A DNA stretch of 24,730 nucleotides from contig CAXTKV010000059.1 in assembly GCA_964244895.1 (NCBI GenBank), positions 1 through 24,730 on the forward strand, given 5' to 3'. Position numbers and translations under genes: made by a program. The notes under the pieces were generated by a model that saw only the letters and a program-made list of their open reading frames with translations, was not told the DNA's origin and searched no databases. The number at the start of each line of letters is the position of its first letter. Position 1 is the first letter of the stretch. The DNA comes from an uncultured Deinococcales bacterium. GTDB lineage: Bacteria > Deinococcota > Deinococci > Deinococcales > JAAFIG01. Shown in pieces: positions 1,085 through 23,866 of the stretch.

Positions 1085-1605
1085 ACCGTCACCTCCTCGG
1101 TCCTGCTGCGCACGGCGGCGACCTCGAGTGCCATCGCTACGATCTCAGGCCGACAAAGTTCGTGCTGGACGGTCTCGAGTGCGCTTTGAAACGCAAAACG
1201 CCCGCGCAGATCGCTAGGCGCGAGCATCGGGCCTCGGAGCTTGTGGGTGCTTGAGCGGTTGCTGTTTACGTCGAAGTTCGTGGTTGTGACCGAACTCGAG
1301 GTTCGGTCAGCAGAGTTTTATAGCAGAACAGTGATGTCACCGCGTGGCGCGCCGACCACCGAACCGCCAGCCTGGCTGTGGTGTTCGGGGCGCCGAAGCT
1401 GTAGGGTGATCAGCGAGCTTGAAAACACGGCGATGGATCGCACGAGAGGCTGACGTCCTCCGTGTCGCGGTTGCGCGCCGCTCAGCTTCTCGCACGCCAC
1501 GAAAAATCGGCATTCCCCAGATTCCCCCCGAACAGGAGGACGCGCCAGCACGAACCTGAGCCATTCACACTCGAGTGCGCCATCAGCCGATCACGGAGGT
1601 TCCAG

Positions 1606-3592: not shown

Positions 3593-4000
3593 GGTCTCCG
3601 GCGTCCTCGGCGCATTGGTTCAAACCGCGAGCAGCACGCGTTTCCTCAACAACTCGAGCGAACCACGCCCGCGCATCTGTTGCTTGATGAGCTTGATCTG
3701 ATTCCCATTTTCTTCTACCGGCCCGTTGCTGAACGGTAAACAGAACGCGTTCAGCAACGCCTGCCCCACCCGTTCGAGCCCGACCGCGAACGTTTTTTGG
3801 TCGGGCCATTCGCTCGCCGCAACCGCCATCAACCACGGCGCAAGCCTTATGGCGCGGCGTTCGCGGATCCAAGCCGTAAAGCTTCGCGTCGGCGAATGGG
3901 AACCTCAACCTGCGATCAACCCTGCAGGATTGGACAAAATCATCTGGTTTCTCGAGGCGCACCTTCAAGCTTGAAGGCCCGAGGATGGATTTTGAAGCGG
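3593..4000 (-). mobile_element. ISL3-family transposase C-terminal remnant with candidate terminal IR; upstream boundary approximate
   Basis: ORF 3620..3832 reads 'FAVGLER..ALLNAFCLPFSNGPVEENGNQIKLIKQQMRGRGSLELLRKRVLLA', a degenerate ISL3 C-terminus (LPWSNGPVEG.N.LK.IKRQMYGRA.FDLLRKRVL). Upstream part is frameshifted. Candidate end GGTCTCCG at 3593. Confidence 0.8.
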
Positions 4001-4402: not shown

Positions 4403-5112
4403 GAAGACCTACCGATGCTGGTCACGAACGTCGAGACGACCGTGGCGCCCACGCAGGACTTCTTGCTCGCAAAACACACCTGACGGGCGCTCACGCTTCG
4501 ATGTTGTGAGCGGCATTCACGCGTCACTGCACGAACGCGAGTTACTACCGGACGAGGATCTCGTCGACCTGGGTGATATCGGCGCGACCCAACTCGACGA
4601 GGCCACGCGCGAGTACGGCATCGGTCTCGTCGGTTCGCCCCGGCAGGATTAGCACCGGCAAGCCTGAGGGGGCAAGGGCTTCGCCACGAAGGACTTCAGG
4701 ATCGACTGGGAGGCCCAGCGCGTGACATGGCCGGCGGGACGCTCGAGCCAGATTTGGACGAACGCTGAGGACTTCCGGTGTAGACCAATGGTGAAGATCT
4801 AGTTCTCGAGCCGCGATCGCAAACAGTACACGTTCAAGCGAGATTGCACGACGGCCCTGAGGCGCACGGTGACGTTGCACGCGAAGCGCGCCGGGATCGA
4901 GGGAACTGTCTCGGTCGGCGTTCGCTCATTCGGCCTGAGACGCTCGAGGTACTTGGGTCTCGAGAAAACGCGGTTGCAGCATCTGGCGACGGCTTCGGCC
5001 TCGAACTTGCGGCGGGTGGCGGATTAGCTAGCGCGGGAGCCTCGGGCGGTGACGCGTTTAGCGCGGTTCGAGCGGGCGATGCAGCAGGCTGCTTGATTAA
5101 GCCAGCGGTATC
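4400..5112 (+). mobile_element. IS1182-family transposase remnant (C-terminal half) with right end
   Basis: Fragments DEDLPMLVTNVETT, IHASLHERELLPDEDLVDLG, GKGFATKDFRIDWEAQRVT, AKRAGIEGTVSVGVRSFGLRRSRYLGLEKTRLQHLATA. Several in-frame stops and an internal deletion. Ends TTAAGCCAGCGGTATC, resembling an IS1182 terminal IR. Confidence 0.8.
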
Positions 5113-8149: not shown

Positions 8150-8205
8150 TAAACCGTCCCGCACGCGATTTTGCTATCAATCAGAATACTGTCTGGGACG
8201 GTGTT
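8150..8205. repeat. 56-bp palindromic element, degenerate copy 1
   Basis: TAAACCGTCCCGCACG-N24-TGTCTGGGACGGTGTT; arms match those of copies 2 and 3 at 12/16 and 13/16, with the same 24-bp spacing. Confidence 0.7.
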
Positions 8206-16314: not shown

Positions 16315-16494
16315 GCACCAGCTTCGACCTGGACTCTCGGCGCGGATCGGCGTAGATCAACACCTCTGATTGGTTTAACCGCGCAACAAACTCGACTGCT
16401 TGGTGGCTCTCAAGAGCGTGCGCTGGACGGTGTTCTCGAGCGAACCTTGATGGCTCGCCCTTGAGGCTCGTGATCGGCGCCCGTGCGCTCCCGC

Positions 16495-16936: not shown

Positions 16937-19900
16937 GTGCGCGTGGACATGGAATTCCAGCAGGTCTCGAGGCGGCTCGCCGGACTGGCCGCGAAGCGTT
17001 CGAGCGTTGTGCTGGGGCTATGGGGTGAACCGGGCATCGGCAAAACGCACAGGGCACTCGCCTTGCTGGGCGGCGCGCCCTGCCAGTCGTTGACGGTGCA
17101 CGCCACCCAAACACCTGAGAGCTTCATCGGCAAAATCCAGCGTCCGAAGAAAATCTCCGTCTGGCTCCAGCGATCCCTGGAACGCGCTCATCGCGGCGAA
17201 GCCCGGGATGTTGCGGCGCTCGTCCAGACCTTGGCTGCGCTCTTGACCGCGAACGCGCCGATGATTTTGCACGTCGAAGACTTGCACGAGGCCACCGCCG
17301 AACGTCTCGAGTTCTGGACGCAACTCGCGCCGATGGTTTCCAGGACGCGCGGGGTCGGGTTGATCGTCACCAGCCGCGCGAATCCACCGGATGGCTTCGA
17401 AGCCGTCCGGCTTTCACCACTGAGCCGCCAAGCCTCCGACGCGCTGCTCGAGGCCGAGGTCAGCGCGACGCTGCCGGGAGAGGCGCTGTCGTGGTTGTTC
17501 GAGCGCGTGGCTGGGAACCCGCTCTACACGCTCGAGTTCTTCCGCTTCCTGGCGCGGCAGGGCTTTGTGTGGAACGACGGCCATCGCTGGCGCTGGCGTG
17601 CGCCCGAGCGCGAGGTCATGCCGATCACGGTCGAGGGGCTAATCGAACGGATGCTGCGCGAGGCGACAGGCGCGCCCGCGCTCGAGGATGCGATTCGGGC
17701 GAAAGCGGTTCTCGGGCTGGGTGCGAACGATGACGTGTGGGCTAAGGTCGCGGAACTCACACCCGAGAACCTGAGCGAGTCGAAACGAGAACTCGAGCGC
17801 CAGGGAATACTTGTAAGAGGCGAATTCGCGCACCCGTTGTACCGAGAGGTGATCGCACACAGCCTGACACCCGAATGCCGCCAGACGTTCGCACGACGCG
17901 CACTTCAGGCGCTCGAGGCTGATCCTCAACGCGCCGCTTCGTTTATCGAGGACGCCCAACTCGAACCCGCACAGGCGCTCGCATGGCTCGAGCGGGCCGT
18001 TGGAGCCGCGACAGAGGCAGGAAATGAAGTCCAATCCTCACGTTTTAAAGCCAAAGCAGTTGCGTATGCGAACGGCGAGGTGCGGGCAAGGCTGGCGCTC
18101 GAGGCGGCGAGGGGATTACGTCGTGCTGACATTCCCGAGGCACTGCGTCTCGCCGAATTAGCGGAAGCTGGTTCTTCCGACGACTTCAAAACAATTGAAT
18201 TGCTCGCTGACCTTTTAGCTTCTCAAGGCAGGTTGGAGGACGCGGACTGCGTTCTCCAACGCTTACCGGAGCAGGAGCGATCTGGACCAAGCTGGTGGCT
18301 CCGACGCATGAAAGTACGAGCCGCTGCGCAAGACCACACCGCTGTCATCGAACTCTGGCGAGAACACCCGGAAGTGGGCGAACTGCACGACCCCGAGATT
18401 GCCTACGCGGTGGCGTTCGCGCTGACGATGCGTGGAGTCAATCAGGAGGCTCACGCCATCGCATCAAAGACACTCAAGCAGCCGGGACTCGCGCCTGAGG
18501 ATCGTTCTCGACTGATCGGTGTGCTCGCAAGCCTGCGGTACAGCGCCAATGACCCTTCAGGGGCCGAACGTTTTGAAGATCAAGCTCTGGAAGCAGCGCG
18601 TCAAGCGAACAGGCCAGACATGATTGCGGTTTACCTTCACAACCGTGCGCTATCACGCGGCGACCAGGGTCGCCGCGACGAACAAATCGCCGACTTGAAG
18701 GAGGCAATCAACCTGCACGCCGAGATCGGCAACGGCGTGCAGGTCATTCGTGCTCAGGTCTCTCTGACCGACGCGCTGCTCGACTTAGCACAGTACGAGC
18801 AGGCCGAAGAACTGCTGCTCGAGTGCCGCGACGTATTGAAAAGGTCCCGTCTGGCCGATGATTTCTTGATCGAGTGCGAGTATCGCTTGAGCCAGCTGTA
18901 TCGAGATTGGGGAATGATCCACGGAGGCATCCTCGCCATCAAGCACGCACACGCCGCGCTGGAAATGGCAAAGCGGGCAGCGAGTCCGACAAAAATTGGC
19001 TGGAGCTTGTGCTACGTCGCCATCGCCGAGGCAAAATTTGGCGACGCGAGTCAAAGTAAGCAATTCGCATCCGAGGCCATTAGGCTCAGTTCAGAGCTAC
19101 AGTTCATGGGCGTAATCGGGATGGCCCGTCTGGCCCAAGCACTCGCTCTTGAAGCGCTGGGTGAACGGGAGAGGGCGCGGAATGAGCTTCGGGAACTCGA
19201 AATGAACCTGATTGAGCAGGGGCTAACCGAACCCGCTCAAGAGGTCGGACTCGAGCTTGATCGTCTGCTCGGGGATGCTGTGAGCGGTGCCTCGCGCCTC
19301 GCGTGGTTCGAGCTAAGCGGCCTCAAAAACATGGCGAACGTCACCCGCCGATACTTTCCTGGACTCACCGAGCGTCAAGCTCAAACCTCGGACTCCACAA
19401 CGCGAGCCGACGGTATTCGACTCGAGGTCTTGGGGCCGATGCAGCTTCGTCAAGATGGCGTCATCACGCCCCTGCGCGGCGGCAAGCGCAAGGAATTACT
19501 GGCATTGTTGCTCGAGGCCCGCATCCGGGGCCGTACTGAAGTCTCGAGCCTGGATCTGTGCGACGCGCTCTATCCTGACGGTCCTGAAGACGTTGCCCTG
19601 GATGCGCTCAAAGCCACGATCTTCAAGATCCGCTCGAGCCTGGGCACAAGCTTGATCGCCACCACCCCGAACGGGTACGGGCTGGGTGCAGTTGCGACCG
19701 ATGCAGAGGACTTCCTGCAAACGGGTGACGCGGGCCTGTGGCGCGGCCCGTACCTCGAGGATGCAGCGCTCGAAGGGCGCGACGAGAACGTGCGCGAGGC
19801 GCTCTATCACGCCCTCGAGACGAACGCGAGGGCGCACCTCGAGACCATCCCGCACGAGGCCGAGCGGCTGGGCCGAATCCTGATGCTGGCCGAACCCTAC

Positions 19901-20123: not shown

Positions 20124-20181
20124 GAACACCGTCCAGGACGCAAATTCTCGATCTTGAATTCTTGCGTCCTGGACGGTGTTC
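20124..20181. repeat. 56-bp palindromic element, copy 2 (perfect 20-bp inverted repeat)
   Basis: GAACACCGTCCAGGACGCAA (20124-20143) and TTGCGTCCTGGACGGTGTTC (20162-20181). The 16-bp core arms (20125-20140, 20165-20180) are 24 bp apart. Confidence 0.95.
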
Positions 20182-20278
20182 ATGTCTTGGCGCAAGACAC
20201 GATCGGCATGACCCTCAAAAGTTGACCGCCGGTTTACCAGACCCCGCGCACCTTGGAGGGGAAAGGGGGGGCAGTCTT

Positions 20279-20554
20279 GTGGAAGATCTCGAGGACGTTT
20301 GGGAACACCGAGCAACACTTCGCTATCGGCTGTGCCCACGCTGCTTCCGGGCGGTTCAGGCCACCTCGAGCGAGCGCTATTGCATCAACGACGGAAGCTG
20401 GTTGCTCGAGCGTTGCCCGTTGTGCGGCGCAGAGATCACCAACCCTTACGCCCATTACTGCGCCACGTGCGGACTCGAGTTCTCGGGCGCGAACTTGATC
20501 GAAAGCGAGCTCAGTCCCCGATTGAGACTCGAGGGGGTGACGAATGAAATCTAA
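20279..20554 (+). CDS. Double zinc ribbon small protein
   Basis: G-rich RBS before GTG 20279; CPRC, YCINDG, CPLC and YCATCG metal-binding knuckles. Confidence 0.8.
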   Translation: MEDLEDVWEHRATLRYRLCPRCFRAVQATSSERYCINDGSWLLERCPLCGAEITNPYAHYCATCGLEFSGANLIESELSPRLRLEGVTNEI

Positions 20555-20912
20555 ACACTGCTTTACCGCATTCCTGGTCGCGTCACTCGCCGCGCCAAGC
20601 GCGTGCACCCCAGCACCAAAATACAAGCTGCTGCCCCCGACCGAGCCACTGATCATCACCCGAGGCACGAGCCACACGATCACGCTCGGGGTGCAACGCT
20701 ACGACGGGTACGCGAGCGCCGCCGTCGTGACCGCGTCAGCCGAGCCGGACGGTGTGACGATCACGCCTGCACAGGCGAGCATCACCGGGAGTAGCTAGGA
20801 GTACACCGTCAGCGTCTCGAGCAGCGTTTCACCGGGCCGGGCTTCCGTTTTCTTCGAGCCGGATGTCGCCGGGCTTGGCTCGGGTGGACGCATCCCCATC
20901 ACGGTGCAGTAA
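20544..20912 (+). pseudogene. Small exported Ig-like (lipo)protein interrupted by an in-frame TAG
   Basis: Signal-like N-terminus ending PSAC and beta-rich body. After TAG 20796-20798 the frame continues 37 codons (EYTVSVSSSVSPGRASVFFEPDVAGLGSGGRIPITVQ) to TAA 20912. Confidence 0.65.
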
Positions 20913-21026
20913 CCCGATCACCCACATCTAGCTCGGCACGTCTTGCTCGAGGAAAACACTCTATCAGTCGCACGAACAGTTTTTCGCAGACGCGAAACCC
21001 TTCACCATCTCCTACGAGGTCACCGA

Positions 21027-23771
21027 ATGAACCATCTCTGGATCAAAGCGTTGTTTCTTCCACTGCTCACGGCGGCGCTGGTCGCCTGCCCGACTGATAC
21101 GACGCCAGCCGAAACGCTATTCACGCAGGCCAATACGTGGAAAGGGGACATCCCCGCGAGCGCAGAACAGGTCAGTCCGACAGAGTTTAGGAATCGCATC
21201 GCGTCTGGGGAACTGATACTGGCGAGCGCCAACACCATTGCAGCCCAGAAACAAACCCGCGAGAAACAGTACCAGGATGACAAGGCGTTCTTGCAGACCG
21301 TCCCGGACAAGGACCCCAACACCACCGCATTGTTAGCTGAAGCCGCCTCGAGCCCGAACTTCGACGGTGACCGCTCGGTGATCGGGCCGGATGGTCAGCG
21401 CGTGATGGTCTTTGGGCTTGGTACGGAACTTCGCAACGCCGCTGATTCGTACAGACGCTCGCAGAGTGTGGACAACGCATTCGCAGGCTACAGCCAAATA
21501 TACGACCTGCTACCCGCTGATCTGAAGGTCCAAGCGCCGACGTCAGACAGCCTCAAAGGAGCTTCACTGACCGCGATCAAAGCTGCCCTCAACCAAGTCA
21601 ACGGTTTGCTGGGTGCAAATCCCAGCACCCTCAAAGTGGCGCGGCTCGAGGTCGGCAATCTGGCGGGCGGCGGTGTCGGGCCACAAGCCTTCAACGCGGG
21701 CAATGGGACGGACAACAACGGTGTTTGCAGCCCCGCAAATTTTGCTCAGCGCTACTGGTTCCCACTGAAAAATTTTACCGGCCCCGTGAAAAGTCAGGGC
21801 GGACGCAACACCTGCTGGGCGTTCACTGCGATCGGCGCGGTGGAGAGCCGCGAGCGTGTGCAGTACAATAACCCCGTCAATCTCTCGGAGCAGTTTCTGG
21901 TGAACAAAGTTAAACAAGCCTGGTCACCGAGCGACTACTGGGAGGGCGGCTCGGCGGATTACGCACTCGATACTGCGCTCAGCCAAAATCAAGGGCTGCC
22001 CCTCGAAACCTTCTGGACGTACAACCCAGCCCTGGGTCGCGCTAGCCCCAAGGATGGTGAGGATGCGTCTTATTTTTTCACCTGCGTCAGTGGGATTCCC
22101 CGAGCTGGGGGCGGATTCGATCCTTACACCGGGACGTGTTCGGACACCGCGCACCAGAGTAAGCAAGTTTGCACGCTGGTGGATGGAGCCAAATATTGCA
22201 GTTCGGTTGCGGTGACGTACAGCGGCGTTGGGGTGTCTTCGGGCAAGACCACGCAACTCTGGAAAAACGGGGAAGTCTTCGCCCTCGAGGTTTACCGCAC
22301 GCTGCTCGCGCAAGGCCACGTGCTGATGGCCAGCTTTCCCGTCTACAAGGGTTTCCAAGACGATGTCAAAGGAAGCAGCGAAGCAGACATTACCAAGCGC
22401 GGGGTGGTCAGCAATTACGGCAGAACCATGCTGAACCCTAAAGGTAAAGAGGTGGACGGCGCGTACGGCGGTCACGTCGTGCAGATCGTCGGTTTTCTCA
22501 GCAACGACGACCTGAGGAACGTCGGTATCACGCCTAACATTGGCGGTGGCGGGTACTTCATCGTCAAAAACTCGTGGGGCTGCTTCGCGGGCGATGGAGG
22601 TTACTATTACGTCCCCGCCGATTACGTCAGTGGTATTTTCGATACGCTCAGCATCCTCAACTTCAATGGTCAGCGCAGCGACGCGTGGGTGCGCGAGCAG
22701 GCCACGCCCGGCGGCGCTGAGTCCCCTAAAATCAACATCAAGTCCTTCCCAGCCCGCCTCGAGCGCGTTGACCTGCGCGTCGAAACTGACCTCGCCAAGT
22801 TCTTCACAGTCACGCATCCCCTCGCCAAAAGCGTCACGTTGAGCATCACCTCCGACCGAGACGGCAGCCTGTACAACGGCCCGTGGAGTACAGACACCAC
22901 CGCCTTAATCGGCCCAATCCTCAAACGGACGTTTGCAAGCCCCGGCAACCGCACGCTGAGCTTCCTCGCCACTTATGGCAGCGGCCAAGCCAGAGACACA
23001 CTGACGATCAATGCCGTCAATACCCCGCCGACCCTCGAGCTGCAAACGAGCGGCGATGCGCGTCAGGGGGAAGATTATTTGATCAGTGCCGCGATTAAGG
23101 ACATCAACGAGTCAGACCTGAGCAAGCTCTGCGCCAGCACGGTCTGGGCGGTGGACGCGCCGGACATCCTGTCAAGCACTACGGGCTGCACAGTCAAGGT
23201 TAAGTTTGGAGCGCAAGGCGCGAGAACCGTCAAGGTCAGCACCACCGATAGCGATGGCGCGACTGGCTCGCGCCAAGTGACGCTGAATGTGCTGCCTCCG
23301 CCCGAAAATCCCTTTCCCCGCATGGTCAGCAGCGGCGTGTACTCCAGAGAGTTCCGTGGTGGTGGCGCATTCGTGCGTACTTGCTCCGATTTTGCCGTCA
23401 GCGGCGGCACGATTGATCTGCGGGAAGACGGTTGCACTTTCAGCATCGCGTCAACGCCACCACCACGCTACTCGGCTGCTGTATCCGTGGAAAACCCCAC
23501 GGGTGAAGCGCTGACCTACGACTGGAAACTGCTGGTCAAAGACTTTTACGGTGTCGAATCCGAGTTGATTGCTACCAATGCTTCGATCAAACCCTCGTTG
23601 GGGATGAAGTACATCCTTTTGGACTCGAACGGCGCACCGTTCGAAGGTCTTTTGACCAATCGAGGCTGTAAGGTCACCCTCAAAATCAACGCCCCTGACC
23701 CAAATCGCAGCAAGGGACCATTCACGATATGGAGCGGGAAGTGTTCCTACGAGGTTCCTAGACCGCGTTGA
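21027..23771 (+). CDS. Papain-like cysteine peptidase (family C1) lipoprotein with C-terminal PKD/Ig-like domains
   Basis: GAGGT RBS before ATG 21027; lipobox LVAC; VKSQGGRNTCWAF (Gln/Cys), LSEQFLV, GGHVVQIVGF (His), FIVKNSWG (Asn); beta-sandwich tail 'TVKVSTTDSDGATGSRQVTLNV'. Confidence 0.88.
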   Translation: MNHLWIKALFLPLLTAALVACPTDTTPAETLFTQANTWKGDIPASAEQVSPTEFRNRIASGELILASANTIAAQKQTREKQYQDDKAFLQTVPDKDPNTTALLAEAASSPNFDGDRSVIGPDGQRVMVFGLGTELRNAADSYRRSQSVDNAFAGYSQIYDLLPADLKVQAPTSDSLKGASLTAIKAALNQVNGLLGANPSTLKVARLEVGNLAGGGVGPQAFNAGNGTDNNGVCSPANFAQRYWFPLKNFTGPVKSQGGRNTCWAFTAIGAVESRERVQYNNPVNLSEQFLVNKVKQAWSPSDYWEGGSADYALDTALSQNQGLPLETFWTYNPALGRASPKDGEDASYFFTCVSGIPRAGGGFDPYTGTCSDTAHQSKQVCTLVDGAKYCSSVAVTYSGVGVSSGKTTQLWKNGEVFALEVYRTLLAQGHVLMASFPVYKGFQDDVKGSSEADITKRGVVSNYGRTMLNPKGKEVDGAYGGHVVQIVGFLSNDDLRNVGITPNIGGGGYFIVKNSWGCFAGDGGYYYVPADYVSGIFDTLSILNFNGQRSDAWVREQATPGGAESPKINIKSFPARLERVDLRVETDLAKFFTVTHPLAKSVTLSITSDRDGSLYNGPWSTDTTALIGPILKRTFASPGNRTLSFLATYGSGQARDTLTINAVNTPPTLELQTSGDARQGEDYLISAAIKDINESDLSKLCASTVWAVDAPDILSSTTGCTVKVKFGAQGARTVKVSTTDSDGATGSRQVTLNVLPPPENPFPRMVSSGVYSREFRGGGAFVRTCSDFAVSGGTIDLREDGCTFSIASTPPPRYSAAVSVENPTGEALTYDWKLLVKDFYGVESELIATNASIKPSLGMKYILLDSNGAPFEGLLTNRGCKVTLKINAPDPNRSKGPFTIWSGKCSYEVPRPR

Positions 23772-23809
23772 GGTTTCAAAAGACCGAGTGTTCGTGAGCC
23801 ATTCCGCAA

Positions 23810-23866
23810 GAACACCGTCCAGGACGCAAGTTTTCAAGTCAGATAAATCACGTCCTGGACGGTGTT
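23810..23866. repeat. 56-bp palindromic element, copy 3
   Basis: GAACACCGTCCAGGACGCAA (23810-23829) is identical to copy 2. Right arm CGTCCTGGACGGTGTT is at 23851-23866, after a different 24-bp spacer. Confidence 0.95.

Follow-up and report, generated by a model that had tools for sequence, protein, structure and literature searches.

The palindromic chromosome-organising sites of ParB/parS, Noc/NBS, MatP/matS, SlmA/SBS and KorB/OB number in the tens and mostly keep to particular regions of the chromosome, and to our knowledge few sequence-specific nucleoid proteins have been described in the Deinococcales. The function of repeats resembling repetitive extragenic palindromes (REP) is still debated, and the cause of the 11-bp A/T periodicity of bacterial genomes is open. 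The E. coli gyrase motif is described, in the available text of PMC6379681, as a degenerate 130-bp signal with a period of 10.75 bp and flanks reaching approximately 65 bp. Here we describe a family of paired palindromes met in the window, by which we mean the whole 24,730-nucleotide stretch analyzed (contig CAXTKV010000059.1 of assembly GCA_964244895.1, positions 1 to 24,730, forward strand) from an uncultured Deinococcales bacterium, whose genome (G000; 5.12 Mb, 62.7% GC, 91% complete) carries the sites in thousands. On a slight balance of the evidence, we favor reading the pairs as sites for a predicted conserved DNA-bending protein at the ends of transcription units.

The first-pass annotation of the window had drawn attention to two 56-bp copies, whose arms, coordinates and A/T-rich 24-bp spacers all proved exact:

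20125..20180, no strand: pair 1, 35-bp class; arms 20125-20140 and 20165-20180, A/T-rich 24-bp spacer 20141-20164.
23811..23866, no strand: pair 2, 35-bp class; arms those of pair 1, spacer different.

Their inner palindromes are centered 35 bp apart, at 20135/20170 and 23821/23856, as had been noted, and the copies are intergenic at close to the 40 to 65 bp past a stop codon first estimated: pair 1 begins 65 bp downstream of the stop of a STAND-BTAD gene, and pair 2 begins 39 bp past that of a papain-like protease gene and 30 bp upstream of the following start. Complementarity in pair 1 reaches past the arms (20121-20143/20162-20184). The genome contains only these two window instances of the exact arm pair around a 24-bp spacer, and identical arms are otherwise exceptional. 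The designation of the two copies as direct repeats was dropped, the term being meaningless for palindromes.

Across the 5.12-Mb genome, a 16-position motif model trained on the arm scored 6,298 strand-hits (approximately 102 in the Markov-3 simulation used as background), which collapse to 5,093 cores, with sites in the thousands on 134 large contigs; the genome scan that the annotation had proposed yields thousands of further copies at non-random spacings, with 2,322 matches to the exact core. The unit is a 21-bp interrupted palindrome, AACACCGT-N5-ACG, whose outer half is strong and whose inner half is weak or full. Inward-facing pairs, 1,727 in all, contain 68% of the cores, and their centers lie 25 bp (n=813), 26 bp (n=123), 35 bp (n=502) or 36 bp (n=185) apart, which refutes the invariant geometry originally put forward. 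Adjacent cores are found at these four distances 818, 127, 548 and 199 times over a background of 1.6 per bp, and 3 times in all at 45-47 bp; minor classes at 30-31 and 41 bp are of mixed orientation. The spacers (59% A/T, with T and A tracts) resemble one another slightly more than a column model predicts, and the pairs themselves are almost all unique (810 of 813 in the 25-bp class, 502 of 502 in the 35-bp class). Paired cores score a mean of 21.9 bits versus 19.9 for single ones, and the overall density is about one core per kb.

Gene calls made for this genome (4,795 genes, 83% coding) place 15.5% of the cores within genes. Among gaps of at least 46 bp, 61% of the convergent, 45% of the tandem and 33% of the divergent ones are occupied by a pair. 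Pairs lie a median 23-29 bp from stop codons and are concentrated at the stop-codon side (390 of 736 within the first fifth of the gap), and a leaderless -10 element precedes the next gene in 26% of the 732 pair-bearing gaps versus 10% of the 380 that lack a pair. Pairs mark transcription-unit boundaries. They also exclude one another: a single pair occupies 1,530 of the 3,412 gaps and more than one pair only 31, compared with 763 and 327 under random placement, and this shortage of multi-pair gaps persists inside gap-length bins. A strong single core is present in 53 of 857 gaps of 150-400 bp that have a pair versus 272 of 777 that have none; within genes, the frequency of strong singles roughly doubles beyond 1 kb from any other site (n=191, p=8e-9).

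The DNA on either side of the pairs is patterned as well. A/T tracts repeat each 11.5 bp outward and fade by approximately 100 bp, with a wave amplitude of 0.13 in the 25-bp class, 0.09 in the 35-bp class and about 0.06 around singles, compared with 0.004-0.026 for four anchor controls and 0.005-0.026 for jittered positions; the phase is identical in all classes and around cores within genes. In codons aligned between this genome and G006, a relative from another genus of which 2.1 of 5.1 Mb (41%) was sampled, the wave beside 541 pair ends is 0.0245 versus 0.0036 (99th percentile of the null, 0.012), and at third codon positions 0.0355 versus 0.003 (0.019); around singles the difference is not significant. 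Since the wave is present in the codons of G000 and absent from the orthologous codons of G006, the coding DNA beside pairs has been repatterned in the G000 lineage. The fixed center classes, the uniqueness of the pairs and these lineage-specific codons support the early suggestion that arms and spacing are under selection while the spacer drifts.

Low-copy relatives of the site extend across the Deinococcus order, in which we compared the uncultured family (f1) to which its proteins and relatives assign G000 with four others: f3, which we take to be Deinococcus-like, f2, presumably Truepera-like, and f4 and f5, presumably thermophile families. One unpublished genome, G250, was counted solely in the order-wide tallies of the exact core, full palindrome and sister form, and supports no claim. 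The exact core has 0-3 matches in the 18 other f1 genomes and at most 45 in any of 300 genomes from the order. In 15 of 264 other genomes of the order, against 1 for the control, the full palindrome occurs as a single copy; it directly follows tRNA 3' ends in four genomes and lies at a partial tRNA copy in one, and this low-copy form after tRNA genes is a T-tailed hairpin. A core lies downstream of 15 of 70 tRNAs in G000 and, as the core apex, of 6 of 19 in the sampled part of G006, where none of 56 terminators listed after orthologous protein genes has it. A tRNA gene cluster of G000 (C151:8000-11700, approximately 21 genes) has several members trailed by cores or pairs. A sister form occurs in 47 of 99 genomes of f3 and 20 of 57 of f2 but is absent from all 64 of f4 and f5, and 49 of 56 such palindromes from 61 f3 genomes have a 5-nt center, none having 3 or 4. 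The site is old, and common descent of tRNA terminators could account for part of its order-wide conservation.

Closer to G000, three CTCGAG-rich metagenome loci carry the core, two of them with 35-36-bp pairs, so that the family is not an assembly artifact, and a closer relative (L290) shares with G000 one orthologous gene end at which each has a pair, alike in class and different in arms and spacer. The other 21 of the 24 metagenome matches and the sole viral match belong to other lineages and could represent hairpins arisen by chance. A strict 46-bp pattern found no match among metagenome contigs, plasmid blastn gave four matches attributable to chance only, and de novo word counts in 14-100 kb samples of six relatives disclosed no comparable repeat family. 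Literature searches for the motif, literal 8-mers included, turned up no description among the papers listed, which does not exclude its occurrence in print; the available text of PMC5217627 deals with motifs other than this one.

The helical steps between classes, the strict center, the lineage-specific phased codons, the mutual exclusion of sites and the order-wide conservation are together best explained by a conserved dimeric protein. One dimer would sit on each core, two dimers on the same helical face would bend the A/T-tract spacer between them, and about 250 bp would be bent or wrapped at unit boundaries. An A/T period above 10.5 bp implies a right-handed DNA path, and the flanks may follow such a path, as at the apex of a supercoil loop or on a wrapping surface. 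Complexes at unit ends, at about one per 2.4 kb, might pin or relieve transcription-generated supercoils, possibly passing DNA to gyrase, a role that position and period alone suggest. Because the palindrome with the 5-bp center exists at low copy in genomes of the Deinococcus family, a cultured host is available in which to look for the protein. A bolder proposal, possible in our view though tentative, is that of a nucleosome-like, sequence-encoded lattice in which an old tRNA-end site was amplified into thousands of phased pairs, forming a wrapped or looped particle of about 250 bp at nearly every second gene boundary and reshaping synonymous codons; the factor would be a putative conserved sequence-specific chromosome organizer, obtainable from cultured Deinococcus, on whose site a mobile 39-nt hairpin lands.

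A number of observations weigh against a protein-site reading. No cognate protein was identified in G000, nor any histone fold, and topoisomerase IB, considered for the position of the cut, is absent from this genome (it is found in 26 of 28 f3 genomes). Four ParB homologues are present, none tied to the motif, along with three HU paralogues. The codon comparison draws on the partial sampling of another genus, and a mutational footprint, not selection, could underlie the periodicity of the flanks. The 25-bp class folds 1.6-1.9 kcal/mol better than chimeras, as a hairpin would, and its arms share rare variants (identical centers in 303 of 813 pairs, 142 expected). Counts of stem G-U versus A-C are even (614 versus 611), in a test that had no working positive control, the GTAG repeats giving 8 versus 7. 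Pairs within genes tend toward lineage-specific insertions, which contain 16 of the 144 cores in genes aligned to G006, compared with 2.2% of controls. Among 250 syntenic gene pairs compared between the two genomes, pair-bearing gaps exceed their G006 counterparts by a median 75-88 bp (62 pairs) and gaps lacking a pair by 0-5 bp; together with the cores in insertions, this suggests insertion. Lastly, one and the same mobile hairpin targets REP loops in relatives and cores here.

All 19 f1 genomes contain that hairpin, a covarying structure with compensatory stem variants that occurs in both tandem and nested arrays. Its removal in silico from G000 sequence brings back a core at 29 of the 51 junctions that could be evaluated and a 25/26/35/36-bp spacing at 21, and the insertion point in cores is always the bond between the 5-bp center and the strong half, against an insertion background of 1.3% of noncoding A positions. 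A loose re-count of this element was full of false positives, and only 31 clean cases and the background rate were used. Several of its subtypes occur in several pair classes, which indicates independent insertions. Of 60 junctions in relatives, 98% have it inserted before an A, with REP loops and other repeats as frequent targets. Rfam searches of 12 loci bearing it gave only one chance match (E=1), and no enzyme for it was found. These insertions show that the core is recognized to the base, which fits the protein-site reading and its REP-like rival equally. Given its very small size and its precise target, this mobile hairpin is worth a study of its own.

The principal rival, which we judge unlikely, is a non-autonomous element of the REPIN (REP doublet forming a hairpin) or BIME (bacterial interspersed mosaic element) type, whose pairs an HUH nuclease would spread as single-stranded hairpins and whose flanks would be imprinted by later use by gyrase or HU. 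The covariation of the 25-bp class, the longer pair-bearing gaps and the shared target of the 39-nt hairpin speak for it, as do the position of the pairs between genes, past stop codons and most often in convergent gaps, the better conservation of inverted pairs than of singles, and the strong gyrase sites that BIME-2 represents in the available text of PMC6379681. No excess of target-site duplications of 2-8 bp was seen at seven boundary positions of 1,726 pairs, as is the case for HUH elements. An intact RAYT (REP-associated tyrosine transposase)-like HUH gene, found by a motif scan and missed by PF01797, lies at C12:40664-41188; it goes with a different repeat, being flanked by and containing GTAG repeats of the GTAGGGGC type (one upstream, one in frame), and some 1.5 kb separate it from the closest intergenic core. 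We note that this GTAG repeat has approximately 268 loose copies in the genome. Against such an element, too, stand the missing GTAG/CGTC foot (a criterion taken from the available text of PMC3733652), CGTC sitting inside the palindrome, and the near-universal uniqueness of the pairs. REPINs are randomly distributed in extragenic space according to the portion of PMC3116915 consulted, whereas the pairs described here are strongly dispersed. The 35-bp class has hardly any shared rare variants in its arms, a spacer less self-complementary than chance and no consistently better folding than chimeras, and a hairpin has no need of helical-turn steps.

The comparison with G006 also bears on how the sites arose. 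Of the 144 aligned cores in genes, 115 show no gap, and local identity falls to 0.53 from 0.65; sites of this kind therefore form in place, even at the cost of amino acids, which is not expected of a REPIN. The corresponding inflation of tripeptides is slight (ENT 29 versus 11, TPS 64 versus 51, NTV 56 versus 51). The greater length of pair-bearing gaps is partly built into the comparison, yet of 59 gaps tight in G006, 13 contain a pair in G000. Singles appear to derive from point substitution, and we infer that some pairs derive from templated copying of a first arm or from insertion. The uniqueness of the pairs and the lack of target duplication argue against a recent mobile burst. Searches of the genome for IS110, TnpB and Y2 transposases gave no match, the Y2 search having no working positive control, and a miniature inverted-repeat transposable element (MITE) was rejected for want of target-site duplications and near-identical copies, with the search for a partner limited to these three families. 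The REP/MITE-like candidate of the first-pass annotation accordingly stands as regards copy number and intergenic position and falls as regards target duplication, clonal copies, the GTAG/CGTC tag, the one-per-gap distribution and the RAYT, which belongs to a different repeat.

Biased uptake during transformation could likewise accumulate a motif, with pairs arising where A/T-rich extensions overlap, although we consider a DNA-uptake sequence improbable here, and we know of no DNA-uptake specificity in this phylum. ComEC and major pilins are encoded, the cores are evenly spaced and fill gaps, they originate in place at poorly conserved residues, and five element-poor contigs carry what we read as defense, CRISPR or mobile genes. 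The density near one core per kb approaches the counts of Neisseria and Haemophilus in the available text of PMC2817400. Known uptake sequences are nonetheless non-palindromic, with some 10% in inverted pairs and 35-65% in genes (PMC1939737, in the part available), which matches neither the paired nor the genic fraction found here. Core density is alike in genes with and without a G006 homologue (7.5 versus 8.7 per 100 kb), and pair density over the 134 contigs has a rho of 0.11 (p 0.21) with the share of genes matched in G006. A ComP domain was not found, in a search with a weak control, and both the 200-bp phased footprint and the low-copy sites after tRNAs would be left unexplained.

The T-tailed ancestral form invites a third explanation, also of low probability, in which a tRNA-terminator stem-loop was amplified as tail-less terminators or mRNA-stabilizing hairpins at the 3' ends of transcripts. 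The stop-codon side position and the downstream leaderless promoters are consistent with it, as is the predicted folding of the two window copies (-43.1 and -31.9 kcal/mol), which fold well because any long palindrome does. Transcription-oriented profiles of the pairs, on the other hand, are symmetric, with neither a U tail nor strand asymmetry, a third of divergent gaps hold a pair, the commonest core center is incapable of local pairing, and the helical steps and phased flanks are properties of DNA. Orthologous gene ends of G006 have a terminator in 22 of 303 cases where G000 has a pair and in 26 of 439 elsewhere, so that replacement of terminators by pairs was not seen in this comparison. 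The U tract of intrinsic terminators is found only in a minority of full palindromes after tRNA genes; terminator calling in the window did not call the elements, and Rfam covariance models gave 0 matches in the window at E<=1.

The remaining proposals of the annotation, an operator for the STAND-BTAD regulator or an attC-like cassette boundary, drew on proximity in the window only and have a negligible probability given 1,727 pairs genome-wide, distances to leaderless starts that are neither fixed nor phased to a significant degree (n=289; an activator-operator geometry was rejected on this count), 5 upstream and 8 downstream pairs for 14 BTAD-like paralogs against 29% and 38% of all genes, both R boxes in 0 of 1,727 pairs, and a best integron integrase score (TIGR02249) of 32.7 of 265 bits. 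A parS/ParB-type site, that is, few sites near the origin with a 16-bp unspaced palindrome, was rejected in view of the thousands of sites and the 5-bp center.

Apart from the two 56-bp copies, the window holds the following members of the family and one copy of the mobile hairpin:

8150..8205, no strand: pair 3, 35-bp class, arms degenerate, absent from the earlier annotation; 89 bp past the stop of an ATP-binding cassette (ABC) substrate-binding gene.
1161..1176, minus strand: single intergenic core, 20.3 bits.
16419..16434, minus strand: single intergenic core, 19.1 bits.
19841..19856, plus strand: weak core within the STAND-BTAD gene, 12.7 bits, which may be chance.
21294..21309, plus strand: weak core within the protease gene, 14.1 bits.
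4461..4497, minus strand: degenerate copy of the 39-nt mobile hairpin, outside any core in the window.

A small lipoprotein-like frame at 20544-20911 has a stop at 20798 past which the reading seems to run on, and 3620-3832 is an ISL3 transposase fragment. Elsewhere in G000 we observed a longer MITE-like family around GACCCCTCCGTC (35 matches) and short tandem 7-mer repeats in gaps. CTCGAG, like a highly iterated palindrome, is present at 4-7 per kb in G000 (21,883 copies) and five relatives, the latter at 5-7 per kb, and this family-wide excess indicates that it is not part of the paired element. No canonical parS within two mismatches was found near the chromosomal parB (C58, dnaA-parAB region), and three weak parS matches lie elsewhere in the assembly. 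Ranking of G000 proteins by codon bias gave no candidate. In GyrA (C149:1443-3890), the C-terminal wrapping domain carries two small insertions without counterpart in eight aligned relatives; the GyrA of the nearest relative is truncated at the C-terminal insertion region.

The core is also embedded in dispersed intergenic repeats of other genomes. In the distant genome G152 (seven loci listed) a partner lies 36 bp away, as a degenerate second core in 8 of 11 copies read; this repeat is the only occurrence of the site met in the 64 f4 and f5 genomes, the other three families all having it. A separate family in G019 (four loci) has a degenerate partner approximately 30 bp away. Clusters of cores precede the genes of a conjugative-looking element in two f3 genomes; in a Deinococcus-family element (G036 and G024, three loci), outward-facing core pairs 79-89 bp apart lie directly upstream of ribosome-binding sites, and folding of their arms could yield a single-strand promoter by analogy with conjugative leading regions. 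Seven loci of one unrelated assembly have the full 21-bp palindrome between paired CGTC-type repeats, which may be chance.

In G000 the 11.5-bp wave is locked in phase to a defined site and originated in a single lineage, a combination that would tie a periodic signal of this kind to a binding event. With ParB/parS, Noc/NBS, MatP/matS, SlmA/SBS and KorB/OB, the sites share their palindromic form and, if the protein-site reading holds, a dimeric protein that shapes the chromosome, whereas here there are thousands of them on most contigs, in phased pairs. The segS, cisII and cisMP sequences of D. radiodurans, as given in the available text of PMC7671480, are unlike the core. The uptake sequences of Neisseriaceae and Pasteurellaceae, so far as the available parts of PMC2397512, PMC1939737, PMC2817400 and PMC1852404 describe them, are alike in their frequency of about one per kb, even spacing, permissive coding positions, post-gene pairs and A/T-rich extensions; the sites described here differ in being palindromic, mostly paired at fixed spacing, seldom genic and undepleted in genes lacking a homologue. 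The symmetric center of the E. coli gyrase motif obtained by Topo-Seq, its two flanks of periodic A/T versus G/C and its enrichment downstream of transcribed genes (PMC6379681, same portion) recall the arrangement in G000, where the center is a specific paired 21-bp palindrome, the period is longer at about 11.5 bp and the reach is some 100 bp on each side. The family also resembles REP/REPIN-RAYT systems and E. coli BIMEs, which the accessible text of PMC3733652, PMC3116915, PMC6006769 and PMC6379681 presents as palindromes that lie between genes in their hundreds or thousands, for the most part as inverted pairs downstream of genes, amplified in a lineage-specific manner without target duplication, hit by other mobile DNA and, in E. 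coli, associated with IHF (RIB/BIME-1) or gyrase (BIME-2). The family described here differs from them in having no GTAG/CGTC foot and no linked RAYT, spacings one helical turn apart, hardly ever two pairs per gap, singles formed by point substitution in genes, and an 11.5-bp wave in the flanking codons. The element works like a BIME or a chromosome-organizing site, yet by the features compared here it fits none of the REP/REPIN, MITE, attC, uptake-sequence or parS classes.

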